Both the position numbers and the translations under genes were made by a program. This document shows, in pieces, positions 8,445 to 31,144 of a DNA stretch of 32,000 nucleotides; positions within the stretch are counted from its first letter, which is position 1, and every line of letters begins with the position of its first letter. This DNA comes from Flavobacteriaceae bacterium (GTDB taxonomy: Bacteria > Bacteroidota > Bacteroidia > Flavobacteriales > Flavobacteriaceae). The stretch spans positions 1,710,001 through 1,742,000 of the forward strand of contig OZ245049.1 in assembly GCA_965224465.1 (NCBI GenBank), written 5' to 3'. Below the pieces are notes generated by a model. The model saw only the letters and a list, made by a program, of their open reading frames with translations, was not told the DNA's origin and made no database searches.

Positions 8445-9259
8445 ATGTTGGATTTATCTAAAGTAAAAATGGTGGTTACCGATATGGACGGTACTTTACT
8501 AAATGATTGGGGAGAGGTAAGCCCTGAATTTTTTCGATTGTTTACGCTATTACAAAAACACAACATACATTTTGTTGTTGCAAGTGGTCGTCAATATTTT
8601 AGTATGTTAGAAAAACTATACAGCATAAAAGATGCTATTACTATTGTTGCAGAAAATGGAGGAATGACCAATTATAATGGTGAAGTAATCTCTACCAGTA
8701 CCATTTCTCAAAAACAAATTAACATTATTATAGACACCTTAAGAAAAACTTCGGGTGCCTATATTGTTTTATGTGGTAAAAAAAATGCCTATATCGAAAC
8801 ATCTGACAAAAAATTCATCGAAATATTCAAAGAATATTACACTAAATTTGAACATGTTAAGGATTTAAAAAGTGTTACTGAAGACAAAATATTTAAGATT
8901 GCCACGTATCATTTTAAAAATTCCACCGACTATATTTACCCCTTTGTAGAACATTTAGAAGATGAAAATTTAGTAAAAATATCAGGGAAAAACTGGTTAG
9001 ACATATCTTCTCCATCTACCAATAAAGGACAAGCTATTGAAAATTTACAACAACTATTAACATCACAAAAGAAGAAACAATGGTTTTTGGTGATTACAAT
9101 AACGATTTAGAAATGTTAGCACAAGCCCATTTTAGTTACGCCATGGAAAACGCTTGTGAAGATGTAAAAAAAGCAGCACGTTTTCACACAAAAAGTAACA
9201 ACAACAATGGGGTGGAATTTATATTAGATAAACTTATAAAATCCAAAGAGCTCAATTAA
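8445..9259 (+). pseudogene. Cof-type HAD-IIB hydrolase interrupted by a 1-nt frameshift near 9057-9062
   Basis: Frame 0 gives MVVTDMDGTLLN...ASGRQYFS...NKGQAIENLQQLL and stops at 9110. Frame 2 is open from 9041 and continues ITKEETMVFGDYNNDLEMLAQAHFSYAMENA...KSKELN* to 9259. Together they form a complete Cof-like protein if one base is restored around TTAACATC. Confidence 0.8.
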
Positions 9260-9412
9260 TTCAATTACAATCCATAATAACCTATATAAATAAGTTGTTT
9301 TACGCTCTAGTGTTGTTAAAAATCAGAACGATAGTTAAGGCTATCCATCCATTTTTTATCTAGCTAAAAAAAAATTATTTATAAACCGTCACTTGGAAAT
9401 ATATTTGGTTTA
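9259..9412 (+). repeat. MITE-like dispersed repeat, copy B
   Basis: Starts AATTCAATTACAATCCATAATAACCTATATAAATAAG and ends CCGTCACTTGGAAATATATTTGGTTTA. It begins at the HAD stop codon. Confidence 0.75.
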
Positions 9413-9436
9413 ATTTAATCACAGCATCTCAAACAA

Positions 9437-9471
9437 AAAAAGCTAGTAAACATAACATTTACTAGCTTTTT
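9437..9471 (+). terminator. rho-independent terminator-like hairpin
   Basis: AAAAGCTAGTAAA / TTTACTAGCTTTT arms with an 8-nt loop, followed by T-rich sequence. It lies downstream of the HAD gene and repeat copy B. Confidence 0.55.
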
Positions 9472-9484
9472 ATCTATTATTTAA

Positions 9485-10473
9485 TAGGGTTACCCTCTTA
9501 AGTCGCAATATATTTGATTGATTTATAGGTTATTGGTTTTTCTTTACACATTCTTTTTAGTAGGTTTTCTAAGATGTTTTCTCTAAAATTGAGTCGATTA
9601 AATCGATAGAAATACTCTTGAATGTATTGATTTATATACTCTTTCTCACAATACGAATGAACGCCTCTTAACCAATTTTTAAAGTTTCTTATCTGAAAAT
9701 GTAGCATCTTAAAATTCTCACCATTATTAGATAATATTTGTGTTAAATTTGGGAAGTTCTTTTTTAAAGGTTTATATCCTGACCAGCCATCTGTAACTAT
9801 ATTGGCATCAAACTTTATATGTTTCTCAAATATTGGTTTTAATGATTTGCAACTATAATCTTCTATCACCTTTGCGTATGCTCTGCCTGGTTTACCATTT
9901 CTATTTTCAATGGCAATTACAACTCTAATTTTAGTAGCTGATTTACTACGTCCTTGCTCTCCTTTTTTTGGTGTACCTATTTCAAACTCGTCTACATGAA
10001 CTTCTTTTTCTAAAGGATATTTCTCACTACTTTTCATTGCTTCTTGTACTTTTCTTCTAAACAACCAAGCTGTCATCTGTTTAACACCGTGCCTTTCTGC
10101 TAACCAAATACTATTCGCTCCTTTCTTACTGGTAACTATATCATAAGTCGTTTCAAAGGCTTCTACAATACCAAATTTAACTTTATGAAATAGAGTGTTC
10201 GCAGTTGGAGACTCATCATATCCGCATTTTGTACAACGTCTATTATACGCTCTTTTTCCTTTTAAAAACTTTGTGTTTTTACATTTAAAACAGGAAAAAC
10301 CTTCTTCCCATTTTACAGATGATAAAAAAGATAAACATAAACTCTCTTCTCCAAACTTAGTGTGAAATTCTTTACGAGATAATTCTTTTAATATTTTCAT
10401 AGCTTTCTTTTTCTAAAAGTAAAAAATCCTTTCAGAAAAACAAAATATTAGTGAGATTTAAATAGGTAACCCT
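9485..10473 (-). mobile_element. IS1595-family insertion sequence flanked by a 9-bp direct repeat
   Basis: Imperfect terminal inverted repeats (T)AGGGTTACC..TTAA..TC at 9485-9510 and 10448-10473. Direct repeat ATTATTTAA at 9476-9484 and 10474-10482. The element contains a single transposase ORF. Confidence 0.8.
9498..10400 (-). CDS. IS1595-family transposase (N-terminal zinc ribbon plus DDE domain)
   Basis: The N-terminus has CxxC...CxxC (CFKCKNTKF...RRCTKCGY) and SIWLAERHGVKQMTAWLFRRKV. The central/C-terminal part is ISXO2-like (VHVDEFEIG, IVTDGWSGY). These are typical of IS1595 transposases. Confidence 0.85.
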   Translation of the reverse strand: MKILKELSRKEFHTKFGEESLCLSFLSSVKWEEGFSCFKCKNTKFLKGKRAYNRRCTKCGYDESPTANTLFHKVKFGIVEAFETTYDIVTSKKGANSIWLAERHGVKQMTAWLFRRKVQEAMKSSEKYPLEKEVHVDEFEIGTPKKGEQGRSKSATKIRVVIAIENRNGKPGRAYAKVIEDYSCKSLKPIFEKHIKFDANIVTDGWSGYKPLKKNFPNLTQILSNNGENFKMLHFQIRNFKNWLRGVHSYCEKEYINQYIQEYFYRFNRLNFRENILENLLKRMCKEKPITYKSIKYIAT

Positions 10474-19700: not shown

Positions 19701-20172
19701 TATCCAAGGAGCATTTATTATTGAAGAATTGACCGATTTATTTGAAGAAGCTGTCTATACAGAATTTGACAGAATCACGGAAAGAGGAGGTGTTTTAGGA
19801 GCCATGGAAACCATGTATCAACGCAGCAAGATACAAGAAGAGAGTTTGTATTATGAAACTTTAAAACACACAGGTAAGTTTCCTGTTATTGGAGTAAACA
19901 CCTTCTTAAGTAAAGACGGATCTCCTACCGTCCTTCCAGAAGAAGTAATACGCGCAACAGAAGAAGAAAAAAAACAGCAAATTCTCACGGTCACAAACCT
20001 ACACCATAATACGGATAAAAAAACAGCAGAACAGCTAGAATTACTTCAAATAAAATCGATCAACAATGAAAATATTTTCGAACAATTAATGGAAGCGACT
20101 AAAATATGTTCCCTTGGTCAAATTACAGAAGCACTCTTTAAAGTAGGAGGACAATACAGAAGAAATATGTAG
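16726..20172 (+). CDS. icmF: fused B12-dependent acyl-CoA mutase (IcmF-type: B12-binding domain + MeaB-like G-protein + mutase barrel)
   Basis: The N-terminal B12 domain has the DxHxxG motif ([11 protein letters not shown]). The P-loop is [17 protein letters not shown], with a NKFD box. The large C-terminal part is a methylmalonyl/isobutyryl-CoA mutase substrate domain ([43 protein letters not shown]). Confidence 0.88.
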
Positions 20173-20180
20173 ATAGGTCT

Positions 20181-20226
20181 ATAAACCAATTACATTCCAA
20201 AACAACCGATATAAATAGTTGATTTC
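20181..20226 (+). repeat. MITE-like repeat, copy D, truncated after ~45 bp
   Basis: ATAAACCAATTACATTCCAAAACAACCGATATAAATAGTTGATTTCA matches the left end of copies E/F/H. It then switches abruptly to effector-gene sequence. Confidence 0.7.
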
Positions 20227-20385
20227 ATGAAGGATTCAAAAGGAGAAAATCACCCTGATTCAGGAGCAATAGATTTAATGAAATACTATAATAACGACCC
20301 AAAATATATTGATTATAAAAGGGCTAGTTCTTCGGAAAAAGACATTCCAGGTTTACTTTGGCTCACTAAATTAGAATTAAAATGA
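20227..20385 (+). pseudogene. orphan 3' fragment (last 52 codons) of an HExxH-effector paralogue
   Basis: MKDSKGENHPDSGAIDLMKYYNNDPKYIDYKRASSSEKDIPGLLWLTKLELK* aligns to the last ~55 aa of the 429-aa protein at 21929-23218. It lacks the HExxH region. Confidence 0.75.
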
Positions 20386-20755
20386 AGTATATTGTATTAT
20401 TAATTTTTATTTCTTTTTTTAGTTGTGAAAATAAAATAAAAACTAAAATAAAAGGCATTATCTATATCAATAAAGACCTTCCTGTTTTAAACATAGAAAT
20501 TGGCTCAAAAATTATATTTTCACCTATGCATTCTAAGTATGCTAAAAGGGTAGGTTTGGTTTTAAAAAAAACGGAGAATTTGAATTCGAAATAAAAAGAA
20601 CAGAGATGAAAGGAGACAATAATTTCGCTGTCATTTTTAGAAAAAAAGGATATAAAGATGAATACAGATTTGTAGACATTAGGAAGGGTGGAGAAATTAA
20701 TTTAGATACAATCTTTTTAAAACAAACCGACAGTATAACGTTGCCTAATAACTAA
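20382..20755 (+). pseudogene. small lipoprotein (putative immunity, family 1), frameshifted at an A8 tract
   Basis: Lipobox FFSC, with an ATGA overlap to the upstream fragment. Frame 0 stops at 20594. Frame 2 continues NGEFEFEIKRTEMKGDNNFAVIFRKKGYKDEYRFVDIRKGGEINLDTIFLKQTDSITLPNN* to 20755. The paralogue at 25704 has A9 at this position and stays in frame there. Confidence 0.7.
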
Positions 20756-20841
20756 GATTCGTGTGGTGCGTAGCGCTCAGAACGAACATAATGTTGACTA
20801 TACCGACTCAAAAGATAATACTATGGGGATTTCCCGAAGTT

Positions 20842-20997
20842 ATACCAAAATAAAATAACTGATACAAATAGTTTATTTCACGTTCTAGCGTTGTTAAAAA
20901 ACAGAACCATAGCTAAGGCTATCCATCCATTTTTCGCCTAGCTAAAACAAAAAATAACTCCATTTCTAAACCATCACTTGGAAATGTAGTTGGTATA
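20842..20997 (+). repeat. MITE-like dispersed repeat, copy E
   Basis: Starts ATACCAAAATAAAATAACTGATACAAATAG (left TIR partly deleted) and ends CCATCACTTGGAAATGTAGTTGGTATA. Confidence 0.75.
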
Positions 20998-21259
20998 ATT
21001 AAAAAATAGTTTCGTATGTAATAAATTTTTCTGCGAAAATTTCAGAGTTTTTTTGCCATAAAACTCATTCTAGGTAGCCCCTTAAGCACATCTATTAAGT
21101 ACTCATAACCGTTGTGTCATAAGCGCACTGTACCCATAGCAATTATTGTTTATTTTGTTATACTAATAAAGAAGCCATATTATAAGGCAGGAAAACAGGA
21201 ATCTCCCCTTTAAAACAAGCATGTAAACAAAATTAATCAGAATAAAAACACAATAACAC

Positions 21260-21289
21260 ATACGCGTATAACATTGTTTTATATATTTG
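21260..21289 (+). promoter_or_regulatory. candidate promoter/operator: 10-bp perfect palindrome ATACGCGTAT followed by a TAnnTTTG-type -7 box (TATATTTG)
   Basis: Palindrome at 21260-21269 and TATATTTG at 21282-21289, about 175 nt upstream of the Hcp-like ATG. The whole segment is duplicated at 25194-25223. No clear -33 TTTG element was seen. Confidence 0.35.
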
Positions 21290-21462
21290 ACCTACGCTTA
21301 AAAACAAACACGCCCTAACAACAAGCCTTCCCTACATTGTAAACTAAATGGATACACTATCAAGTTTAGAATTGTTATTGTGAGGATATGTGTATTACAA
21401 AGCATTGACACACTCCAAGAACTTAATACAACATATAACAACACAACATATAACAACACAAC

Positions 21463-21927
21463 ATGGTAAAAGCAATATTAATAATAGAAGGAAAAGAAGT
21501 AAACGTACGTTGGTTTACCATCAATTTTAATCAAGGAGCAAATCCTAACGGCAGACCCTCACAGAAACCCATATTTGTAGGTTTAAAACTAATTATAGAA
21601 ACTAGAAAAGACCTAAATCTTACTGACTGGGCCTTTTCCTCTAGACAAACAAAACAGATAGTATTACATCTTAATTCCGTTATTGTGGGAGGCAAAACAA
21701 GAAAAATATTTTTCTATGACTGTCATCTTGTAAACTGGAAAACAAATTTTTCTTCTACAGGATCAGATCCAATGACGGAAACTTTAGAAATCACCTGTGC
21801 TGGTGTTGAAGATTCTAACTCGTTTGGTGTGTATTCTGCCTCTTGGAGAGAAACATTTCCTAATCTAGAAGAAAATAAAAACAATAACCAAATAATTGAA
21901 CTAAAAGTAAAAACTAATATATCATAA
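21463..21927 (+). CDS. Hcp/TssD-like tube protein (Bacteroidetes T6SS-iii type)
   Basis: 154 aa. MVKAILIIEGKEVNVRWFTINFNQGANPNGRPSQKP..GLKLIIETRKD...IFFYDCHLVNWKTNFSSTGSDPMTETLEITCAG follows the pattern I recall for Bacteroidetes TssD: K-A-x-L-x-I-x-G, x-F-x-Q-x-x-D/N-x-x-G-R/K-P, and a late PM..L.I.A motif. Confidence 0.62.
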   Translation: MVKAILIIEGKEVNVRWFTINFNQGANPNGRPSQKPIFVGLKLIIETRKDLNLTDWAFSSRQTKQIVLHLNSVIVGGKTRKIFFYDCHLVNWKTNFSSTGSDPMTETLEITCAGVEDSNSFGVYSASWRETFPNLEENKNNNQIIELKVKTNIS

Positions 21928-21928
21928 A

Positions 21929-23218
21929 ATGCCATATTTTATCCCTTTAGGAGTACCTGACTTTAACGGAAAAAAAGAAAGAGACTTTTTCCAGTTTACA
22001 TACGAAATAGAAGATAATGACGCTCTAGAATTACTTATAGAAATACGTGACGGCAGCAATGTTATATATAAAGAAAAAATAACAGATTGCTCAAAATTAA
22101 TCCAAGGAGAACATATTTGGCAATGGGACGGTTTTGATAATCATGGAATTTTAGACACTGCAAAATTCACTAATGCAAAAAGTTTAAATTTTTACGTCAC
22201 AGGAAAAGATGATGCTGGAAACTACGACCGATCTAAAACTGATTTTAAAGCAGAATATGACCAAGTAGATTGGGTAGATGTTAAAATTGATAAAGTCTCT
22301 AAACGTATTGACGTAACATTACGTGTAAATTTAACTGATGGAGGTGAAAAAGGAACTGAAACCAATTATAAATTCGAGAAAATAAGCCCAGGTGATTATC
22401 ACAATCCAAAACTATCGGCACCGAAAAAAATATATCCTTGGAGTAAAATCCCTAACAAAGCATTAGAATACTACGGAGAAACTCCTATAAAAACAAGAAC
22501 TAAAAGTTTTGAAGAATTAAAAGAAATGGTTCTAGATGGTATAAATATTTACTGGAGTCGACATCAAGGTAATATTGGTAAAAATATACAGATCAATAAT
22601 AAAAAATACGAAATTTTCGTGAATGCTATTAATATAACGGATTCTAATAAAAGTTTGGATGACATTCCTCTTATTTACAACACAAATAGTCCTTGGTCTA
22701 GATCTGGAAACACTGGAGGTAGCTACAGTGACGGGAATTTTGATGACGAAATAATGGGAATACTTCCTAATGGTTTAGTTCAACGAATTTCTTTCAATTC
22801 AGGCTATATTTATCATGATAATTGGAAATCATGGTACAAAGGACACTACATACATAAAACAAAAGGTTGGTTATTTAATTCGGAGGTTAATGAAACTAAA
22901 GACTTTGAAGAAACATCTGCTCACGAAATTGGACATGAAATACTTCAAGCTTACGCAGGAACAGTCTATTCGTGGCAACATAAAGGTAGTTCTTATTATT
23001 TACCTCAAGATATTAAACCTGTAGGAGAAGAAACTTTTAAAGAGGAATATATAAACATTGATTATATGGAAAACTCAAAGGGTGAAAACGTACCTACCAG
23101 TGGAGAAATTGACTTAATGAAATACTATAACGATTATTCTGATTACAAAAATAGAATTATAGCTAACGAAAAAGACGTACTCAGTTTATTATGGTTAACT
23201 AAACTAAATCTAAAATGA
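21929..23218 (+). CDS. putative secreted effector with a C-terminal HExxH zincin-like domain
   Basis: 429 aa with no signal peptide, starting 1 nt after the Hcp-like stop. The N-terminal segment has an FlgD-Ig-like signature (LIEIRDGSNVIYKEKI...GEHIWQWDGFDNHG). The C-terminal part has TSAHEIGHEILQAYAGTVYSWQHKGSS. HExxH plus a conserved His 14 residues later is also kept in the paralogue fragments at 26905 and 27670. Confidence 0.6.
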   Translation: MPYFIPLGVPDFNGKKERDFFQFTYEIEDNDALELLIEIRDGSNVIYKEKITDCSKLIQGEHIWQWDGFDNHGILDTAKFTNAKSLNFYVTGKDDAGNYDRSKTDFKAEYDQVDWVDVKIDKVSKRIDVTLRVNLTDGGEKGTETNYKFEKISPGDYHNPKLSAPKKIYPWSKIPNKALEYYGETPIKTRTKSFEELKEMVLDGINIYWSRHQGNIGKNIQINNKKYEIFVNAINITDSNKSLDDIPLIYNTNSPWSRSGNTGGSYSDGNFDDEIMGILPNGLVQRISFNSGYIYHDNWKSWYKGHYIHKTKGWLFNSEVNETKDFEETSAHEIGHEILQAYAGTVYSWQHKGSSYYLPQDIKPVGEETFKEEYINIDYMENSKGENVPTSGEIDLMKYYNDYSDYKNRIIANEKDVLSLLWLTKLNLK

Positions 23219-23670
23219 TATATATACTAATATTCACTTTTATCTTTTTTTCTATTTTACTAATAACTAACCCTTTGTTTAGAAAAAAAAGAATAATTTC
23301 AAAAATAATTATTTATATCATTTTCACTCTAGTAATCTTCTTAATTACCGTTTTATTTATAATGTATTTATGGAACACAAATATTGATTATCGCGAACAA
23401 AAGAAAATGATGAATTCTCATAATATTTATATTTTAAACACCCTAAATAACCCAATAAAAAACACAATAACAATACTTGAAAACAAAAACAACAAAGATA
23501 CAATTATATCAAATACTAATGGTTTTGTAAACTACAACAAAGTAAAAAACAAGACAATTATAATCCAAGCTAAAGGACATTTAACAAAGACAATAGCTGT
23601 CAATAAAATTAATAATGACACAATACGTCTAAAACAAATACAGACAAATAACCACCTACACAATAAGTAG
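23215..23670 (+). CDS. small two-TM membrane protein, putative cognate immunity protein
   Basis: ATGA overlap with the effector stop. Two hydrophobic helices (IYILIFTFIFFSILLITNPLF; IIIYIIFTLVIFLITVLFIMYLW) are followed by a ~90-aa beta-rich domain (NPIKNTITILENKNNKDTIISNTNGFVNYNKV...IIIQAKGHLTKTIAV). That domain resembles the CarboxypepD_reg-like pattern of the downstream lipoproteins. Confidence 0.5.
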   Translation: MIYILIFTFIFFSILLITNPLFRKKRIISKIIIYIIFTLVIFLITVLFIMYLWNTNIDYREQKKMMNSHNIYILNTLNNPIKNTITILENKNNKDTIISNTNGFVNYNKVKNKTIIIQAKGHLTKTIAVNKINNDTIRLKQIQTNNHLHNK

Positions 23671-23882
23671 GTAAAATACTGATATCCATCCATTTGATTC
23701 CGACTCAAAAGATGCTATCATCAGCATAATATAAATAACTGGGCTAATGTCTACTGGTCATAATAAATGTAGGCTATTTTTAGAGCTGAACTTAATTATT
23801 TTTTATACTACAAGGAACTCCTTTTAGGATTGTTTAAATGTAACAGCAGGGCAGAATAAACCTTTTATGAGGATTAAATAAA

Positions 23883-25008
23883 GCTTAAATTCAACTAATA
23901 AACGCAACTTTTCGATTTGATTCTATGATGGTTATATTTTCAAAACAGAAAAGTAGGAAAACCTACCTTTCTTGTCTTGATGGATATGTATCTTACGGTC
24001 TCAAATCTCGAAAAAAGAAGTTGTATGAAACACATCACCCAAGCGCAAAGATACACAATTTGTTGCATGTTAAAACAAGGTTATAAACAGGTTGAGATAG
24101 CAGCTGCTATAGGAAAAGACAAGTCTGTTATTAGCAAAGAGATTAAGCGTAATTCAGACAAAAGAAATGGAGTTTACAAGCATGAATTAGCCCAAAAAAA
24201 GTATGCTAAACGTCATAAAGAAAAGCCTAAAAGAAAACGCTTTACAGAAGATATTCAACAAGCAATAGAGTTGTTATTGCGAGACGATTATAGTCCTGAG
24301 CAAGTAGTTGGTGTCCTAAAAAAACAAGGTAAAGAAACGGTGTCTATTGAGCGTATATATCAGCATATTAGGGAAGACAAGAGGAATGATGGTGATTTAC
24401 ATACACACCTTCGCAGACAGGGAAGGAGATATAGAAAACGTGGCTCATCAAAGGATTCTAGAGGGGTTATAAAGAATCGTATTAGTATAGAACAACGCCC
24501 TGAAGTTGTTGAACAAAGAAATCGATTTGGAGATTTAGAGGTCGATTTAATCATAGGTAAAAACCATAATCAAGCCATACTTACCGTAAATGATAGAGCT
24601 TCTGGAATGCTTAAAATGAAAAAAGTAAGCTCTAAAGAAGCAGTTGTTGTCACTAAAGCTATCAATGAAATATTAGAAGACTGGAAGCCTTATCTACATA
24701 CTATAACAGCTGATAATGGAAAAGAATTTGCAGGCCATGAGCAGGTTGCAGAAAATTTATGTATTGATTACTTTTTTGCGCATCCATATCACTCTTGGGA
24801 AAGAGGATCTAACGAAAATTTAAATGGTTTGATTAGACAATATTTTGCCAAAGGAAGTGACTTTACAAACCTAACAGATCAAAGAATCAAAGAGGTAGAA
24901 ACAAAATTAAATAACAGACCTAGGAAGAGACATAAATATCAAAACCCTATATTTGTAATGGAACAATTATTATTTAACTAAAAGTTGCGTTTGTGACTTG
25001 AATTCAGC
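23883..25008 (+). mobile_element. IS30-family insertion sequence
   Basis: Imperfect ~29-bp terminal inverted repeats: GCTTAAATTCAACTAATAAACGCAACTTT (23883-23911) and the reverse complement of AAAGTTGCGTTTGTGACTTGAATTCAGC (24981-25008). A single transposase ORF lies inside. Confidence 0.8.
24025..24981 (+). CDS. IS30-family transposase
   Basis: N-terminal HTH (MKHITQAQRYTICCMLKQGYKQVEIAAAIGKDKSVISKEIKRN). DDE region (GDLEVDLIIG, ITADNGKEF, HSWERGSNENLNGLIRQY). The start is taken at the ATG at 24025 rather than the TTG at 23977. Confidence 0.88.
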   Translation: MKHITQAQRYTICCMLKQGYKQVEIAAAIGKDKSVISKEIKRNSDKRNGVYKHELAQKKYAKRHKEKPKRKRFTEDIQQAIELLLRDDYSPEQVVGVLKKQGKETVSIERIYQHIREDKRNDGDLHTHLRRQGRRYRKRGSSKDSRGVIKNRISIEQRPEVVEQRNRFGDLEVDLIIGKNHNQAILTVNDRASGMLKMKKVSSKEAVVVTKAINEILEDWKPYLHTITADNGKEFAGHEQVAENLCIDYFFAHPYHSWERGSNENLNGLIRQYFAKGSDFTNLTDQRIKEVETKLNNRPRKRHKYQNPIFVMEQLLFN

Positions 25009-25193
25009 AAGTGTTTAATTCTGCATTTTATTTTTAAAAAGCACTCCAAGTATTAAGTTCTCTGTTTTTATTAGTAGAAACCACAAACCCACGTTTACCA
25101 ATTAATATCATGTTTTAAAAACAGTACGATGAAGTTCAAAACTTTACAATAACTTAAAGAACAAAACTACATCGAAATTAAAACACAGAAACA

Positions 25194-25223
25194 CATACGC
25201 GTATAACATTTTTTCATATATTT
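25194..25223 (+). promoter_or_regulatory. second copy of the palindrome plus -7-box leader, now without a downstream Hcp gene
   Basis: ATACGCGTAT at 25194-25203 and TATATTTG at 25216-25223. About 140 bp (25185-25332) aligns with 21250-21395 upstream of the Hcp-like gene, then runs straight into repeat copy F. Confidence 0.3.
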
Positions 25224-25332
25224 GAACTGCATTTTAAAAAATAAACACGCCCTAATCATAAGCTAAACCAACTGTGAACTAAATAAATATGCTATCAAGT
25301 TTAGAATTGCTATTGTGAGAACATTGGGCATT

Positions 25333-25497
25333 ACACCAATTACAATCCAAAATAACCTATATAAATAGTTTATTTCACGTTATAGCATTGTTAAAAAAAA
25401 ATAAAATGACAGCTAAGGCTATCTATCCATTTTTCGCCTAGCTAAAACAACAAACAACTCCATTTCTAAACCGTTACTTGGAAATGTAGTTGGTATT
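25333..25497 (+). repeat. MITE-like dispersed repeat, copy F
   Basis: Starts ACACCAATTACAATCCAAAATAACCTATATAAATAG and ends CCGTTACTTGGAAATGTAGTTGGTAT. The left flank is the Hcp leader copy. The right flank is effector codons equivalent to ~aa 352 of the intact gene. Confidence 0.8.
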
Positions 25498-25707
25498 AAA
25501 CCTGAGAGGAAAGAATCATTTAAAGAAGAATATATTAATAGAGATTTTATGAAAGATACCTCAGGTGAGAACTCCCCTGATTCAGGAGCAATAGATTTAA
25601 TGAAATACTATAATAACGACCCAAAATATATTGATTATAAAAGGGCTAGTTCTTCGGAAAAAGACATTCTAGGTTTACTTTGGCTCACTAAATTAGATTT
25701 AAAATGA
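25497..25707 (+). pseudogene. orphan 3' fragment (~69 codons) of an HExxH-effector paralogue
   Basis: (I)KPERKESFKEEYINRDFMKDTSGENSPDSGAIDLMKYYNNDPKYIDYKRASSSEKDILGLLWLTKLDLK* aligns with DIKPVGEETFKEEYINIDYMENSKGENVPTSGEIDLMKYY...LLWLTKLNLK of the intact gene. There is no HExxH and no credible start codon. Confidence 0.75.
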
Positions 25708-26079
25708 AGTATATTGTATTATTAATTTTTATTTCTTTTTTTAGTTGTGAAAATAAAACAGAAACTAAAATAAAAGGCATTATCTATATCAATAAAGACC
25801 TTCCTGTTTTAAACATAGAAATTGGTTCAAAAATTATATTTTCACCTATGCATTCTAAGTATGCTAAAAGGGTAGATTTAGTTTTAAAAAAAAACGGAGA
25901 ATTTGAATTCGAAATAAAAAGAACAGAGATGAAAGGAGATAATAATTTTGCTGTCATTTTTAGAAAAAAAAGGATATAAAGATGAATACAGATTTATAGA
26001 CATTAGGAAGGGTGGAGAAATTAATTTAGATACAATCTTTTTAAAACAAACCGACAGTATAACGTTGCCTAATAACTAA
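25704..26079 (+). pseudogene. small lipoprotein (putative immunity, family 1), frameshifted at an A8 tract
   Basis: Near-identical to 20382-20755. It is in frame through the first A-tract (A9) but has A8 where the other copy has A7 (25964-25971). This gives a stop at 25979, and the remainder (KGYKDEYRFIDIRKGGEINLDTIFLKQTDSITLPNN*) reads in frame 1 to 26079. Confidence 0.7.
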
Positions 26080-26165
26080 GATTCGTGCGGTGCGTAGCGC
26101 TCAGAACGAACATAATGTTGACTATACCGACTCAAAAGATAATACTATGGGGATTTCCCGAAGTT

Positions 26166-26328
26166 ATACCAAAAAAAAAAACCGAAATAACTGATATAAA
26201 TAGTTTGTTTTAGGTTCTAGCGTAGTTGTAAAAAACAGAACAATAGCTAGGCTATCCATCCATTTTCCGCCTAGCTAAAACAAAAAATAATTTCATTTCT
26301 AAACCTTCACTTGGAAATGTAGTTGTAT
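26166..26328 (+). repeat. MITE-like dispersed repeat, copy G
   Basis: Starts ATACCAAAAAAAAAAACCGAAATAACTGATATAAATAG and ends CCTTCACTTGGAAATGTAGTTGTAT. It has a perfect internal stem TAGCTAGGC...GCCTAGCTA. Confidence 0.75.
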
Positions 26329-26372
26329 TACTTCAATTTATAAAGCATTACATATCTAAATAACACATCGTT

Positions 26373-26834
26373 ATGAAATACATATTAATCTTAATTATAC
26401 CATTCTTATTATTAGCATCTTGCGCTCACAACATTCCTATAGCAAATTTAAAATTTAATGAGATTAAAAAAAACAATGAAATCAACAATTATTATTCCTT
26501 AAACTTTTCATCAGATATAGAGCTTATTCATAATTTATCAGAAAAGCATACAATGGCAAGGTTTGATTGTTTTTTTAAAAACGGGAATATTGAACAAAAG
26601 GATTTCACAAACTATAACGGTTATGTATTAGTATCCGTTGGAGAATTAAAAAAAGCTTCAAATATTTCTTCAGCACAACTTTATAATTACACGGTGAATG
26701 TTACCTTTGATAAAAATAAAGGTGAATTTTTAGACGAGAAGGATATTCCTGAAATTATTAAATTACTCAATAAAAAACCAAAATATTTAAACTGTGCAAT
26801 CACAGCAGTAACATATTTACAAACTACAAAATGA
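26373..26834 (+). CDS. hypothetical lipoprotein (possible orphan immunity protein of a different family)
   Basis: Signal peptide and lipobox MKYILILIIPFLLLASC. I recognise no motif. It is embedded among the effector/immunity cassettes. Confidence 0.5.
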   Translation: MKYILILIIPFLLLASCAHNIPIANLKFNEIKKNNEINNYYSLNFSSDIELIHNLSEKHTMARFDCFFKNGNIEQKDFTNYNGYVLVSVGELKKASNISSAQLYNYTVNVTFDKNKGEFLDEKDIPEIIKLLNKKPKYLNCAITAVTYLQTTK

Positions 26835-26904
26835 TATATATCAAACACTATGTGCTTACCAAAAAAGGAATTGAAAAACCTGATAAAATAACGCTTTTAA
26901 ATAA

Positions 26905-27297
26905 CTAATTATTAGCGAAACACATAGCATCAAGCCTACACACCCTATTTCCGATGCCAACTCAAAAGAAGCTGATTTTGCAATTATGTACAGAACAAAA
27001 ATCATATATAACACCAATTACAATCCAAATCCTGAGGATAAAGAACTTAAATACACATCAGCTCACGAAATAGAGCATACAATATTAAAAGCTTACGGGG
27101 GAACATTTTATAGTTATGGACATAAAGGAAGTGTAAACACTTTTACCCAGACTGAAAGCTCAGACGCAGAAGAATACTCTAAAAAGGGAGAAATAGATAG
27201 TATGCCATATTACACAAATGTTGTTCCTTTAAGTCAGTACGAAAGGCTCTGTTCTGCGGAAAAAGATGCTATAAGTTTAATCTGGTTAACTAAATGA
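26905..27297 (+). pseudogene. orphan 5'-truncated HExxH-effector paralogue (divergent variant)
   Basis: The frame is open from 26905: ...ISDANSKEADFAIMYRTKIIYNTNYNPNPEDKELKYTSAHEIEHTILKAYGGTFYSYGHKGS...GEIDSMPYY...EKDAISLIWLTK*. It aligns with mid-region INITDSNKSLDDIPLIYNTN and the HExxH region of the intact gene. About 75 residues between these two regions are missing. Confidence 0.65.
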
Positions 27298-27665
27298 GAA
27301 TTAAAATGAGAAAATTCCTGTTTTTTATAGCTGTAGTTTATCTGATTCAGTGTAAATCAAATATAAATTACTACCAAGGCTTTATTTATGATATGAATAA
27401 TAATCCCGTAATAAATTTAAAAGTTTACGAAAAACACAATAAAGAAAATTATTCATTGACAAATAAAAAAGGATATTTTAAAATATATACAAAAAGGAAT
27501 AACATTAAACGATTTCTTTATGTTAAACTAAATGAGTCAAGAATTATTGATTCTATACAAATTACTGGAATTCAAGGAGGAGAACGAATTAAATATAGTT
27601 TTATCGAAGGAAGAAAAGATACATTATTTATAACATTGCCTAAACAACTAAATATTGCGCGCTAG
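27294..27665 (+). CDS. small lipoprotein, putative immunity protein (CarboxypepD_reg-like pattern)
   Basis: ATGA overlap with the upstream fragment. Lipobox LIQC (the start may be the second ATG at 27306). YQGFIYDMNNNPVINLKVYEK...TNKKGYFKIY resembles carboxypeptidase-regulatory-like beta-sandwich domains. Confidence 0.55.
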   Translation: MRIKMRKFLFFIAVVYLIQCKSNINYYQGFIYDMNNNPVINLKVYEKHNKENYSLTNKKGYFKIYTKRNNIKRFLYVKLNESRIIDSIQITGIQGGERIKYSFIEGRKDTLFITLPKQLNIAR

Positions 27666-27669
27666 GTAG

Positions 27670-28053
27670 TACTCAAGCCCCCTTGGAGATGGTAATGAAT
27701 GGTTCTATGATAAAATAGTTGATGCAAATGAAGAATATAAAGAAACCTCAGCTCATGAGATAGGTCATGAAATACTGCAAGCTTATGCGGGTAATGTGTT
27801 TTCTTGGCAACATAAAGGCAGCTCTTATTATATGCCTCAAGATAAAAAGCCAATAGGCAAAGAATCATTTAAAGAAGAATCTATTAATAGAGATTATATG
27901 GAAGAAACTAAAGGGGGAAATTACCCTCATAGTGGTGAAGAAATAGATTTAATGAAATACTTTCCCGAAACAAAACCCAATAATTTTTATGATAAACGTG
28001 TTGCAAATAAAAAAGATGTACTTGGGTTATTATGGCTTACAAAATTAAAATGA
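27670..28053 (+). pseudogene. orphan 5'-truncated HExxH-effector paralogue (close to the intact copy)
   Basis: The frame is open from 27670, directly after the preceding stop: GDGNEWFYDKIVDANEEYKETSAHEIGHEILQAYAGNVFSWQHKGSSYYMPQDKKPIGKESFKEESINRDYMEE...IDLMKYF...KKDVLGLLWLTKLK*. There is no ATG upstream of the HExxH. Confidence 0.7.
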
Positions 28054-28393
28054 AACTTATAATAATTTTTGCAGTATCATTTCTTACTTCATGTGTTGAA
28101 GACACCTTAAGAGATGAAGTAAAGGCTTGTGTTTACTATAAAAACGTCCCCGTTAAAGATGCTATAATATTAACATGGCAAGGCTATGAAAAAGGTTTTA
28201 CCAAGGAAACCTCTACAGACTCCTTAGGTTATTTTTATTTAAAAAAATCAGTAGATACAATTTAGGGTCAGAATCACGTACTATTTCTCAGAAATTTTTA
28301 ATTAAAAAAGAAGATTTAATATCCGATACTTTGTCAACACTTGATTATAGATGTATCGATAAAAAAAATGACACAATATATTTAAGAAAATAA
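28050..28393 (+). pseudogene. small lipoprotein (putative immunity), frameshifted at an A7 tract
   Basis: ATGA overlap; MKLIIIFAVSFLTSC lipobox. Frame 0 stops at 28265. With one extra A at 28241-28247 it would read GYFYLKKISRYNLGSESRTISQKFLIKKEDLISDTLSTLDYRCIDKKNDTIYLRK* to 28393, which parallels the C-terminal halves of the 27294 and 28457 proteins. Confidence 0.6.
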
Positions 28394-28456
28394 CGTCCCT
28401 AGCAATTGTAACCATTGCACAAAAGAATAAATTTGCCACACAAAATTAGAATTAAA

Positions 28457-28807
28457 ATGAAACACATAGCATCTATTTACTTACTCATTTGTTTTTTCTC
28501 TTGTAAAGAAAAAGAGCTTAATTATTATCATGGAGTTATTGTTGACAAAAATTTAATTCCTATTTTAGGTGTTACTGTTAAAACAGATTATGCTGATTCT
28601 GTATATACAAAAACAACAAAAAACGGTTATTTCAAATTACCAAGAAAAGCCAATAGATATGGAAGTTTAGTTTTAAAAAAAAAAGGATATAAAACGGATA
28701 CCGTAAGGACTATATGGACTCAAAGCGGTGAATTTATAGACTATAGTTTTATTAATAATAAAATAGACACCGTATTATTAATAAAAACAACGGCATACAA
28801 TAACTAA
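28457..28807 (+). CDS. small lipoprotein, putative orphan immunity protein (CarboxypepD_reg-like pattern)
   Basis: MKHIASIYLLICFFSC lipobox. YHGVIVDKNLIPILGVTVKTDYADSVYTKTTKNGYFKLPRKANRYGSLVLKKKGYKTDTV is a classic CarboxypepD_reg-like signature. It is preceded by a ~25-bp degenerate remnant of the effector 3' end (TTGCCACACAAAATTAGAATTAAAATGA vs TGGCTCACTAAATTAGAATTAAAATGA). Confidence 0.6.
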   Translation: MKHIASIYLLICFFSCKEKELNYYHGVIVDKNLIPILGVTVKTDYADSVYTKTTKNGYFKLPRKANRYGSLVLKKKGYKTDTVRTIWTQSGEFIDYSFINNKIDTVLLIKTTAYNN

Positions 28808-28826
28808 CAGCAACATACATAATACA

Positions 28827-28982
28827 ATACCAATACTAAACAACCGATATAAATAGTTGATTTCACGTTATAGCGTTGTTAAAAAACAGAACCATAGCTA
28901 AGGCTATCCATCCATTTTTCACCTAGCTAAAACAACAAACAACTCCATTTCTAAACCGTTACTTGGAAATGCAGTTGGTATA
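28827..28982 (+). repeat. MITE-like dispersed repeat, copy H
   Basis: Starts ATACCAATACTAAACAACCGATATAAATAG and ends CCGTTACTTGGAAATGCAGTTGGTATA. It marks the right edge of the island. Confidence 0.75.
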
Positions 28983-28990
28983 AGATGCGC

Positions 28991-29046
28991 GTATTGAGGT
29001 CTGAGTTTTTTAAATAGTATATCTTTTAAAACTCAGTCCTCAATAC
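28991..29046. terminator. long hairpin between the island and the recQ 3' end (possible bidirectional terminator)
   Basis: 19-bp arms GTATTGAGGTCTGAGTTTT / AAAACTCAGTCCTCAATAC (1 mismatch). On the plus strand it is followed by TTTATTTTTTT, and it ends 1 nt before the recQ stop codon. Confidence 0.55.
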
Positions 29047-29047
29047 T

Positions 29048-31144
29048 TTATTTTTTTGCCAATATAGCCAAGGACATCCTTATAGTAGTATAGCCAATTT
29101 TATCTTCAAAAAACTCATAATAAGGTTTTAACAAATCAGGATTCCCGAGTTTTTCCTTAGCAATTCTTACTTTTTCCACCTCTTCCTTTGTTACAAAATC
29201 GTACAAATCAACAGCTTTTCCGTCCGCAAATAATTTAGCAATATGAGAATACACGGTCACAGGATTTAATCCACGCTGATCCGAAATCTCATCCACAGAC
29301 AAACCTTTTTTATACAAGCGAAAAGTTTCATCAAAAGTGTTCTTCTTTTTTGGTTTCTGCCGTATAAATTTAGTAATTTCAGCTATAAATTCATCACCAT
29401 AAACTTCCAATTTACGCTGCCCTACTCCACTTATATCTAAAAAATCTGCATCACACATAGGTCTTGCACGATCCATTTCTTTTAAGGTAGCATCACTAAA
29501 CACTAAATAGGCAGGAATCCCCTCATCGGTCGCAATTTTAAAACGCAGTTTTTTCAAAACATCAAACAATGTAGACGATTTACCTGTAACTTTAGGTAGT
29601 TTCTTTACTGTTCTTTTTGCGATTTTCTTTAAATCTACAGGTTTAGTCAAACTAACTTTTTGCCCATTATAAAGTACTTTTTTAGAAAACGCTGTCAATT
29701 GCAAGGCGTTGTGTTTATGAAATGCTATTTCACACAAACCCAAATTAGTCAATTGAATAAGATACTGTTGCCAATCTTTCCAAGAGATTTCGTTTCCTAT
29801 GCCGTAGGATTTTAGCTGATCATACCCTTTGTCCAAAACAGTGGCATTTTTAGCCCCACGAAGTACATCTACAATAGTTCCCACTGCTTCCTTCTCCTTT
29901 ACCCTATATATCACAGACAATGCTTTTTGAGCAATTACAGTACCGTCAAAAATCTGCGGAGGATTTTTACATACGTCGCAGTTTCCACAATTTCCAGACA
30001 ACTCACCAAAATAACTTAACAGTAAAATTCGACGACATGTGGTGGCTTCAGAAAACTGCTTCATTCTTTCAAGTTTCGCTACTTGCACATCCGCATTGCT
30101 AGCCCCTTCCGTAAATTTTCTCAATTGAATCACATCTGCATAACTATGAAAAAGCAAGGCGTGAGATTTTAAGCCATCGCGCCCCGCTCTCCCAATTTCT
30201 TGATAATACCCTTCGATATTTTTAGGCATATTATAATGAATCACCCAACGCACATTCGATTTATCTATTCCCATTCCAAAGGCAACTGTTGCACACACAA
30301 TCTGAATTTCATCAAAAATAAAATCCTCCTGCACCTGCGTTCTATCATCAAAAGACATTCCTGCATGATACGCCGCTGCATTGATTCCGTTTTTATCTAA
30401 TTTAGCTGCCAATTGCTCGGTAGACTTACGGCTCAAACAATAAATAATCCCAGAATCTCCAGGTCTTTTATTCACAAATCGAACTATTTGACCAATTCTA
30501 TCATCAGCAGTTCTCACTTCGATTTCAATGTTTTTACGATCAAATGATGAAATAAAAATAGGCGCATTTGGAATACTTAATTGATCCAAAATATCTTTCC
30601 GAGTCGCTTTATCGGCGGTAGCAGTCAGCGCTATGATAGGAATCTTAGGCATGCTGCGTTTAAAAAAACCCAACTGTTGATATGAAGGTCTAAAATCGTG
30701 TCCCCAAGAAGAAATACAATGGGCTTCGTCGATAGCAATGCAGCTGATAAATTCTTCTTTTAAAATATTTTGCAAGAGCGATAAACTCTCAGGAGCTACA
30801 TACAATAGTTTTAAATCGTGCTTTAAAATTCGTTCAAAAATATCGGATTGATCCTCGTGATCCTGACTACTGTTATAATACGCAGCAGGAATCCCATTGG
30901 CATTTAGACCATCTACCTGATCCTTCATCAAGGCTATTAACGGAGAAATCACTAACGTAAGTCCTTTAAAAATCATGGCAGGCAACTGAAAACAAATAGA
31001 TTTTCCGCCCCCCGTAGGCATGATAACCAAAGCGTCTTCCCCTTTTAAAACAGATTCGATAATCACTTTTTGTTGGTCACGAAAAGTATCATACCCAAAA
31101 TATTTTTTTAATGTTTCTTCTAAAACTCCCTCGGTGTACTGCAT
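29048..31144 (-). CDS. recQ: ATP-dependent DNA helicase RecQ
   Basis: 698 aa. Motifs: FGYDTFRDQQ, MPTGGGKS, DEAHCISSWGHDFRPSY, TATA, AFGMGIDK and GRAGRDG. It also has a zinc-binding Cys cluster (CGNCDVC) and a C-terminal HRDC-like region. Confidence 0.95.
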   Translation of the reverse strand: MQYTEGVLEETLKKYFGYDTFRDQQKVIIESVLKGEDALVIMPTGGGKSICFQLPAMIFKGLTLVISPLIALMKDQVDGLNANGIPAAYYNSSQDHEDQSDIFERILKHDLKLLYVAPESLSLLQNILKEEFISCIAIDEAHCISSWGHDFRPSYQQLGFFKRSMPKIPIIALTATADKATRKDILDQLSIPNAPIFISSFDRKNIEIEVRTADDRIGQIVRFVNKRPGDSGIIYCLSRKSTEQLAAKLDKNGINAAAYHAGMSFDDRTQVQEDFIFDEIQIVCATVAFGMGIDKSNVRWVIHYNMPKNIEGYYQEIGRAGRDGLKSHALLFHSYADVIQLRKFTEGASNADVQVAKLERMKQFSEATTCRRILLLSYFGELSGNCGNCDVCKNPPQIFDGTVIAQKALSVIYRVKEKEAVGTIVDVLRGAKNATVLDKGYDQLKSYGIGNEISWKDWQQYLIQLTNLGLCEIAFHKHNALQLTAFSKKVLYNGQKVSLTKPVDLKKIAKRTVKKLPKVTGKSSTLFDVLKKLRFKIATDEGIPAYLVFSDATLKEMDRARPMCDADFLDISGVGQRKLEVYGDEFIAEITKFIRQKPKKKNTFDETFRLYKKGLSVDEISDQRGLNPVTVYSHIAKLFADGKAVDLYDFVTKEEVEKVRIAKEKLGNPDLLKPYYEFFEDKIGYTTIRMSLAILAKK

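Follow-up and report, generated by a model that had tools for sequence, protein, structure and literature searches.

The C-terminal modules of Rhs and CdiA polymorphic toxins also occur as orphans (Zhang et al. 2012, PMC3482391), and C-terminal displacement of such modules goes back to Jackson (2009) and Koskiniemi (2014), as cited in PMC5361080. In the T6SS (type VI secretion system) of Vibrio cholerae, new modules replace the resident effector, the immunity gene and sometimes the 3' end of the effector gene stay behind downstream, and the members of the resulting orphan arrays correspond to complete pairs of other strains; the recombination invoked is both homologous and of the homology-facilitated illegitimate kind (Kirchberger et al. 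2017, PMC5361080). Gut Bacteroidales carry orphan T6SS immunity genes in arrays, the acquired interbacterial defence (AID) and recombinase-associated AID (rAID) clusters, which protect against the effectors of other strains (Ross et al. 2019; Azhieh et al. 2025, PMC12247911). Tpe1-Tpi1 and the C-terminal domain of VgrG2b with PA0261 exemplify an HExxH toxin that a T6SS delivers and that acts in the periplasm; the immunity protein is soluble and periplasmic, a lipoprotein or anchored by a transmembrane (TM) helix, depending on the species (Wood et al. 2019, PMC6899460). PMC5014421 gives DUF4280 as the PAAR-like domain of Fte1, an effector of the Bacteroidota-type system (T6SSiii) of Flavobacterium johnsoniae. 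Here we analyze a 32,000-nt stretch of contig OZ245049.1 of a marine Flavobacteriaceae bacterium (the window; one strain of the source species), which contains an 8.8-kb island that is probably an auxiliary Hcp-effector-immunity module of T6SSiii, with an unnamed polymorphic toxin family and an orphan array built by C-terminal displacement. To our knowledge, T6SSiii effectors outside gut Bacteroides are almost uncharted.

The expressed part of the island comprises three consecutive genes, with tssD directly upstream of the intact effector gene:

21463-21927, plus strand: tssD (Hcp of the Bacteroidota-type T6SS), 154 aa; matches PF17642 with E 7e-25.
21929-23218, plus strand: intact effector, 429 aa; N-terminal immunoglobulin (Ig)-like beta-sandwich module (aa 1-~165) followed by a C-terminal HExxH domain.
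23215-23670, plus strand: cognate partner and predicted immunity protein, 151 aa; ATGA start overlapping the effector stop; two N-terminal TM helices, then a beta-sandwich.

Residues H332, E333, H336, H351 and D395 of the effector are invariant in the family alignment, and an AlphaFold model of the protein (predicted local distance difference test score, pLDDT, 79) has a pair of Ig-like sandwiches at the N-terminus and then a C-terminal domain of mixed alpha/beta type. The toxin domain is a putative zincin-like metallopeptidase, a designation taken from the invariant HExxH/H/D pattern alone, since the domain has no significant relative in sequence or fold. The effector gave no match to any Pfam or NCBIfam family, Tox-MPTase1-5 included, at E <= 0.1, leaving the toxin domain without a family model, and a Foldseek search with the whole-protein model returned matches only to the N-terminal Ig-like sandwiches, all above E 1e-3.

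Around this module lie truncated relatives of the effector. A tblastn search of the window with the 429-aa protein returned exactly four additional in-frame copies, all on the plus strand and all lacking their 5' part, and a family hidden Markov model (HMM) built from 27 homologues detected only these same four in the window (E 5e-17 to 9e-50). Together with a short remnant of a fifth copy they read as follows:

20218-20385, plus strand: fragment A; tblastn 20218-20382 corresponds to aa 377-429 (62% identity, E 1e-13); no HExxH.
25495-25707, plus strand: fragment B; tblastn 25495-25704 corresponds to aa 362-429 (63%, E 4e-20); no HExxH.
26905-27309, plus strand: fragment C, aa ~290-429; tblastn 26986-27306 corresponds to aa 308-429 (40%, E 5e-15); HEIEH.
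27670-28053, plus strand: fragment D, aa ~265-427 with an internal deletion; tblastn 27700-28047 corresponds to aa 314-426 (63%, E 2e-41); HEIGH.
28433-28460, plus strand: remnant E; a fifth effector copy reduced to its final ~7 codons (..TKLELK*); ATGA overlap.

The in-frame homology of fragments C and D extends upstream, by eye, to about 26905 and 27670. A sequence-only reading of this DNA had listed four 5'-truncated paralogues, regarded them as diverged variants of one domain rather than unrelated toxins, and noted that two retain HExxH and two are cut downstream of it; the searches confirm the four copies, alignment to the intact gene shows their homology, and C and D keep the motif, fragments A and B beginning downstream of it. 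The same reading described a common tail, ATGA overlaps at five positions and a 25-bp remnant before 28457. All of these are present: the tail ..EKD..LLWLTKL.LK, common to all copies, forms a 68-nt repeat family with six members including the ~25-nt remnant, and the overlaps into the next open reading frame (ORF) lie at 20382, 25704, 27294, 28050 and 28457. In fragment C the stop codon (27295-27297) falls four codons before the ancestral ATGA (27306-27309), and a glutamate occupies the family-invariant position G335. Fragments C and D share 94-nt blocks around HExxH that are 72-78% identical.

Each orphan fragment is followed by a small gene for a putative membrane-anchored protein, and one further lipoprotein gene stands without an effector fragment in front of it:

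20382-20755, plus strand: lipoA; lipobox (..FFSC); frameshifted in a run of eight A.
25704-26079, plus strand: lipoB; frameshifted in another poly-A run than lipoA; carries the boundary motif discussed below at 26059-26075.
27294-27665, plus strand: lipoC; intact; 54% identical to the immunity gene of Tenacibaculum maritimum P0043.
28050-28393, plus strand: lipoD; frameshifted, the first frame ending at 28265 and the other continuing to 28393.
28457-28807, plus strand: lipoE; intact, 116 aa; 52% identical to the immunity gene beside a full-length Cellulophaga effector (L003).
26373-26834, plus strand: lipoX; 153-aa lipoprotein of another family.

The orphans and their partners fall into different toxin and immunity subtypes, represented by cassettes A/B, C, D and E, and each has counterparts that form complete effector-immunity pairs in other genera. 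Fragment B matches the full-length effector of Flavivirga aquatica at 74%, with a counterpart also in T. ovolyticum, and lipoA is a homologue of the intact immunity genes beside the full-length effectors of these two species (76% and 70%, respectively). Fragment C belongs to the subtype of the expressed T. maritimum allele P0043 and of a Gangjinia effector (70-72%). A/lipoA and B/lipoB are duplicates of one another (20221-20855 versus 25543-26179 at 95-97%), fragment A being a duplicate of the 3' part of B; the two fragments differ at 12 nucleotides, eight of them non-synonymous. Their partner genes differ by single nucleotides in homopolymer length, with A8 versus A9 and A7 versus A8 (20555-20575 / 25880-25895 and 20640-20650 / 25960-25972), differences that could reflect slipped-strand variation, decay or homopolymer assembly error. 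The idea that each fragment has a different lipoprotein gene of its own thus stands only in part: small ATGA-overlapping genes do follow the fragments, but lipoA and lipoB are duplicates, three of the five are frameshifted, and the partner of the intact gene (23215-23670) has no lipobox, carrying two N-terminal hydrophobic helices instead. LipoX has no Pfam match and no homologue in any of 88 related loci, and may be the orphan immunity gene of another toxin family.

Three further segments (20760-20841, 23696-23734 and 26084-26165) had been read as mid-region remnants of the effector. Against the family HMM, 192-278 of 300 shuffled controls scored as well, and comparisons with the DNA of the effector gene and with aa 211-262 of 27 family members likewise gave results no better than shuffles; on these HMM, DNA and targeted protein tests we rejected the segments as effector remnants. 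The two beside fragments A and B (20760-20841 and 26084-26165) belong to the one segment that is duplicated at 95-97%.

How widespread is this toxin, and how does it vary? The 429-aa protein has 579 homologues, all named ones annotated 'hypothetical', from Tenacibaculum, Flavobacterium, Elizabethkingia, Chryseobacterium, Pedobacter, Chitinophagaceae and others. The toxin domain itself has 282 representatives at 50% identity in 1.84 billion proteins and is always C-terminal; among the best 150 of these representatives, about a third are short proteins consisting of the C-terminal part only. The family spans Flavobacteriales, Sphingobacteriales, Chitinophagales and Cytophagales, and includes members in the fish pathogens T. 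maritimum and F. columnare/covae and in Elizabethkingia. Some homologues are fused N-terminally to TssD (PF17642) or to the PAAR-like DUF4280 (PF14107), and even a single-sequence search places an Hcp-like ORF upstream of 17 among 80 full-length copies. Variation is concentrated at one end: Tenacibaculum proteins are 96-100% identical over aa 1-140 and only 37-50% over aa 231-429, and the converse mosaic is seen between P0022 and P0034, with 62% identity at the N-terminus and 76% at the C-terminus. Downstream 5'-truncated copies on the same strand, spaced 300-450 nt, occur at 27 of 81 loci, the orphan-bearing ones including F. covae (6), F. columnare (3), Bergeyella, Riemerella and Pedobacter. 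Two very long proteins, P0333 (2487 aa) and P0378 (1329 aa), match the C-terminal part of the toxin domain, one of them in seven stretches, which hints at other carrier architectures or at a repeated GEIDLMKYY-like motif.

Across these 81 loci, 108 partner ORFs follow effector copies, 70 of them starting with an ATGA overlap. Their median length is 118 aa; at least 59 carry a lipobox, and others have two N-terminal TM helices. PF13715 (CarbopepD_reg_2) is matched by 22 of 41 partners at E <= 0.01 (best 1.7e-8, mostly below the gathering score), and a profile of the partners matches the SusC N-terminal domain with E 4e-6. Based on these similarities, the partners are predicted to be membrane-anchored beta-sandwiches of the CarboxypepD_reg (transthyretin-like) type, and lipoprotein and two-TM anchoring alike would place the partner domain in the periplasm. 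Similarity between toxin C-termini co-varies with similarity between the adjoining partners (Pearson 0.48 over 3160 pairs, which are not independent of one another).

How such arrays arise can be followed in T. maritimum. In four genomes, tssD and the effector gene occupy one conserved chromosomal site, with three different expressed alleles and two to nine orphans; in a fifth strain, two complete modules sit elsewhere on the chromosome. The last 225-243 nt of the expressed allele of one strain, together with its immunity gene, recur as orphans in other strains at 97-100% identity. For example, positions 8931-9555 of locus L083 equal positions 9548-10172 of L081, and L081 carries a 957-nt segment, against 340 nt in L083, that holds a new C-terminus, immunity gene and boundary. 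This pattern is sequential C-terminal displacement, and it shows in T. maritimum the kind of exchange that the sequence-only reading had proposed to look for across strains of the source species. Mapping of breakpoints by megablast at >=97% identity was uninformative, as high-scoring segment pairs continue into neighbours that are 85-92% identical, and no recombinase was seen next to the T. maritimum arrays.

Orphans in T. maritimum begin at only two points, aa 221 or aa 338. Those of the first type encode a complete toxin domain and retain ~100 nt (aa ~219-255) nearly identical to the expressed alleles, a true homology handle in this species. A handle at aa ~228-250 had been suggested for the window itself; the suggestion holds for the T. 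maritimum orphans and fails for the window, where the first codons of the orphans fall within the variable domain (aa ~265-377) and nothing homologous to the constant part is left. Each 338-type orphan is preceded by the same ~48-nt junction (ATAACGCTGCCTAACAAAGATGGCTATAAGTAATTGCTACTTTTAGTT|GTCTTAAAAGCC..; L081-L085, e.g. L082 9500-9560), and each 221-type orphan by a conserved ~50-nt spacer ending in GTTAAC. Units with fixed boundaries thus make up the T. maritimum arrays. The segment upstream of tssD is variable in this species: L081 and L083 (4585-6822) carry a set resembling a cyclic-oligonucleotide-based anti-phage signalling system (CBASS; HNH, CD-NTase, TIR-STING), and L082 and L084 are without it, so that the site looks like a general hotspot for conflict systems.

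Fusion and linkage to Hcp and PAAR-like proteins, co-varying partners, orphan arrays and allele replacement are hallmarks of interbacterial effector-immunity systems. One may ask whether the gene pair could instead encode a secreted or periplasmic protease and its inhibitor that serve the producer's own envelope physiology or act on a eukaryotic host; the occurrence of members in fish pathogens (T. maritimum, F. columnare/covae) and the lack of a recognised toxin domain in the effector would fit such a role. We regard this as extremely improbable, given the Hcp and PAAR-like connections, the hypervariable C-termini with their co-varying partners, the orphan arrays and the strain-to-strain replacement of alleles, and given that envelope-anchored partners have a parallel in the Tpe-Tpi metallopeptidase pairs (PMC6899460).

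Returning to the window, the block as a whole and its surroundings identify it as an insertion:

20173-29047, plus strand: whole island, between the gene for a fused isobutyryl/methylmalonyl-CoA mutase (stop at 20172) and recQ (minus strand, stop at 29048).

The 8.8-kb block is absent from the mutase-recQ site of the three closest relatives, metagenome-assembled contigs whose mutase is 88-92% identical to that of the window, and the order of the flanking genes is conserved; with the same flanks lacking the block, we interpret the block as an insertion. The spacer in these relatives measures 0.6-0.9 kb and contains one small gene, AHSA1-like in two of them and a 124-aa ORF without a Pfam match in the third. 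The AHSA1-domain gene of the two relatives (L086 13512-13937, L087 13514-13939) is missing from the window. From this comparison it appears that the island replaced a small AHSA1-domain gene and was not simply inserted beside it. The neighbours of the island across the window are housekeeping genes, which makes the island an auxiliary module away from the main T6SS cluster, and a second Hcp paralogue is present in the same genome. Farther from the island, an ISXO2/IS1595-type transposase gene (9498-10400) lies between a HAD hydrolase gene and prmA, a place taken by clpS alone in the three relatives. Recombinases in the window are limited to the IS30 transposase listed below and this IS1595-type transposase; no tyrosine recombinase or integrase was found there.

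We propose the following model for the island. The 429-aa protein would be carried by or with the upstream Hcp through its constant N-terminal Ig-like module, and its C-terminal HExxH domain would be a zinc hydrolase that attacks the periplasm of a neighbour. The beta-sandwich protein encoded downstream, membrane-anchored and facing the periplasm, would bind and block its own toxin variant. What the data show is the homology, the architecture, the island status, the mosaicism across the family and the displacement in T. maritimum; secretion, enzymatic activity, periplasmic site of action and protection are inferred. A new variable C-terminus with its immunity cassette would recombine into the expressed gene, pushing the old toxin 3' end and immunity gene downstream. 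The toxin fragments left behind would be dead, lacking the N-terminal module and, in two cases, the catalytic motif, and the orphan immunity genes would be what selection can retain, by protecting against relatives that still fire the older toxins. Consistent with the model, C, D and E directly follow the preceding gene, as displacement predicts. The sequence-only reading had already called the locus a polymorphic toxin/immunity cassette island, and the linkage to tssD, the fusions, the absence of the island from relatives, the mosaicism and the displacement in T. maritimum uphold that view.

Not everything in the island is explained by displacement, and its repeats record a local history of their own:

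20173-20227, plus strand: 55-nt 5' stub of repeat D1, joined directly to fragment A.
20842-20998, plus strand: D1 copy 1; dispersed element resembling miniature inverted-repeat transposable elements (MITE) or repetitive extragenic palindromes (REP).
25323-25498, plus strand: D1 copy 2; abuts fragment B.
26175-26331, plus strand: D1 copy 3; from repeat search and alignment.
28811-28983, plus strand: D1 copy 4; from repeat search and alignment.
21215-21400, plus strand: P1, upstream region of tssD; contains a conserved -7 box of Bacteroidota type, TATATTTG, at 21282-21289, with a predicted promoter function.
25150-25335, plus strand: P2, a ~190-nt copy of P1 (78-85% identical) located after the IS30 element; box TATATTTG at 25217-25224, followed by D1 and fragment B, not by tssD.
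23870-25022, plus strand: IS30-family insertion sequence (IS) bounded by 43-nt terminal inverted repeats; encodes a transposase (23977-24981) and follows closely on the partner gene of the effector.

D1 is a repeat of ~157-176 nt, present as four copies and one 5' stub, all direct, that delimits the blocks of the island; the stub meets fragment A within ~17 nt of microhomology, a patch that resembles fragment B's INRDFM codons. In one relative only, a 77% identical copy (L087 21679-21841) fills the spacer between COX3 and a hemerythrin/PAS gene, which otherwise measures 33 nt, and this copy in an unrelated place marks D1 as a dispersed MITE/REP-like element. It also led us to reject D1 as specific to the island; D1 as the native mutase-recQ spacer was rejected on its absence there in the relatives. 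D1 has no Rfam match, a metagenome scan for its core found nothing, and Rfam applied to the island and to a T. maritimum array gave nothing relevant. D1 probably supplied the homology for the A/B duplication. The succession P2-D1-B suggests a second tandem Hcp-effector module, as found in L085, L059 and L060, that lost tssD and aa 1-361. In our model, then, this second module was probably lost by deletion, leaving P2-D1-B behind, the B unit would have been duplicated to give A, and the IS30 element would have inserted. The predicted promoter P2 could drive the orphan array; a scan for sigma-70 promoters and terminators showed no enrichment over shuffles, such a scan not being applicable to Bacteroidota promoters.

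Could the array be nothing but debris of local tandem duplication, IS- or MITE-associated deletion and decay, with no imported cassette and no retained function? Several features are compatible with this: the 95-97% identical A and B units are flanked by D1, P2 duplicates the region upstream of tssD, IS30 and a dispersed repeat in four copies sit within the island, frameshifts interrupt three partner genes, and most A/B differences are non-synonymous. The window array is indeed partly decayed, with frameshifts, G335E and the premature stop in fragment C adding to these A/B differences, and with only lipoC and lipoE intact. Yet A/B, C, D and E have as their nearest relatives complete pairs from other genera (52-76%), well above the similarity of the cassettes to one another, two partner genes remain intact, and the same architecture arises by displacement in T. 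maritimum, so we consider an origin purely as debris unlikely.

Displacement remains our preferred account of the array, and several observations weigh against it or against the reading of the island as a T6SS module. Duplication and deletion account better for fragments A, which lies upstream of the expressed gene, and B, which comes after a copied promoter region. The breaks in three of the five orphan partner genes speak against strong current selection; the two poly-A frameshifts could instead be assembly errors. T6SS core genes are not found in the 32-kb window, and at 429 aa the effector is large for cargo of the Hcp lumen, so that its mode of loading is uncertain. A PDB search with the toxin domain gave as its best match the HExxH region and helix of the CapP peptidase, at E 0.84, and Foldseek with a model of the C-terminal domain (pLDDT 74.5, moderate confidence) found nothing below E 1e-3.

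What marks the ends of the cassettes? An 18-nt motif, AATAACGYTGCCTAAYAA, stands at the 3' end of otherwise divergent partner genes and shows base-for-base conservation across Tenacibaculum, Cellulophaga, Flavivirga, Lacinutrix, uncultured Flavobacteriaceae and the source genome (L003, L005, L012, L031, L039, L041, L069, L081-L085 and the window). In 1.54 Mb of loci we counted 34 copies of its 12-nt core, AACGYTGYCTAA, on the effector strand against one on the opposite strand, a 17-nt pattern with up to two mismatches gives the same 34:1 strand count, and all copies on the effector strand lie 323-460 nt after the end of an effector copy. The identity of the motif stands out against flanks that are not conserved. 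Most partner ORFs translate it as ITLPN; elsewhere it holds the stop codon, at ..GCC TAA or at an internal TAA as in lipoD. It is thus read in two or three frames or partly after the stop, and it accompanies several partner subtypes. In the window, copies are found only at the ends of lipoA, lipoB (listed above), lipoC and lipoD:

20735-20751, plus strand: boundary motif ATAACGTTGCCTAATAA, end of lipoA.
27629-27647, plus strand: degenerate boundary motif TATAACATTGCCTAAACAA, end of lipoC.
28389-28405, plus strand: degenerate boundary motif AATAACGTCCCTAGCAA, holding the lipoD stop TAA (28391-28393).

A recombination anchor, a processing signal and a regulatory site are all possibilities for its role. 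We tentatively entertain, and hold to be somewhat doubtful, the idea that cassettes are delimited by dedicated cis elements rather than by chance homology, with the ~100-nt handle at aa ~219-255 as the left element in T. maritimum and AATAACGYTGCCTAAYAA as the right one. If functional, the motif bears on how such arrays are built.

These conserved blocks also bear on whether the orphans form a silent cassette library that recombines back into the expressed gene to switch the toxin, using the blocks as handles. Orphan Rhs modules in Salmonella have reportedly been shown to recombine into the expressed gene in this way. The two fixed starting points in T. maritimum, the ~100-nt block and complete toxin domain of the 221-type orphans, the 18-nt motif conserved at partner 3' ends across genera, the 94-nt blocks (72-78%) shared by C and D around HExxH and the 68-nt tail in all window copies would all suit such a use. 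In the window, however, no fragment reaches the constant region or aa 219-255, and the proposed handles are non-homologous; A and B lack the catalytic motif, C combines G335E with a premature stop, and D is internally deleted. With only 60-78% identity to the expressed copy over short blocks, the fragments would be poor substrates for homologous recombination, and we judge a silent library very unlikely.

We speculate that, were the motif a recombination or processing signal, the arrays would amount to programmed toxin/immunity switching, for which pilE/pilS with the downstream Sma/Cla repeat offers a comparison, and the toxin domain would represent a new zincin-like fold with a periplasmic target. 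With alleles that differ between strains and with long arrays of orphans, the family behaves like a textbook polymorphic weapon, and the locus can serve as a marker of strain competition in aquaculture pathogens. It offers a probable new fold of periplasm-acting HExxH toxins together with a predicted new immunity fold, and since the cassettes are variants of one domain, they constitute natural specificity panels for studies of effector-immunity recognition. The sequence-only reading knew of no described flavobacterial system with this domain and partner, and our own searches of Pfam, NCBIfam, the PDB and the literature brought no match; toxin family and immunity fold, their phylum-wide spread and the boundary motif appear to be undescribed in the literature searched. 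The principle of displacement and orphan arrays is already known, and what is new is its occurrence in an unnamed toxin family.

How does the locus relate to the systems described before? It resembles the V. cholerae arrays, the T. maritimum comparison revealing the same displacement pattern. Those arrays belong to a proteobacterial T6SSi and involve unrelated toxin families, whereas the system described here is T6SSiii and Hcp-linked, and its cassettes are variants of one toxin domain; moreover, 3' fragments of the effector are regularly kept and a conserved 18-nt motif stands at the cassette ends. With Rhs and CdiA systems the locus shares a constant N-terminus, a variable C-terminal toxin with an adjoining immunity gene, and strings of 5'-truncated ends each with an immunity gene; orphans in T. 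maritimum keep a stretch of the constant/variable junction, and those in the window do not. Unlike Rhs and CdiA proteins, the effector has no Rhs/YD or filamentous haemagglutinin repeats and no PxxxxDPxGL or VENN motif, its carrier being the ~165-aa Ig-like module.

Within its own phylum, the locus resembles the rAID clusters in having an array of orphan T6SS immunity genes. The latter are associated with a recombinase and lie apart from an effector; here there is no recombinase bar IS30, the array directly adjoins the expressed effector and includes leftover toxin fragments, and lacking a recombinase, it was rejected as an integron-like or rAID array. The alternation between lipoprotein and TM-helix anchoring known for the Tpe/VgrG2b immunity proteins recurs among the partners described here. 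In contrast to the Tpe-Tpi pairs, there is no detectable similarity in sequence or predicted fold (model pLDDT 74.5), the linkage is to Hcp and PAAR-like proteins and not by fusion to VgrG, and the predicted immunity fold is CarboxypepD_reg-like. Finally, the architecture fits among the specialised Hcp and PAAR-like effectors of T6SSiii, as homologues fuse the Ig-like and HExxH module to TssD or DUF4280, and the window has a separate tssD; unlike Fte1, the F. johnsoniae member of the family found here (P0066) carries no DUF4280 annotation.

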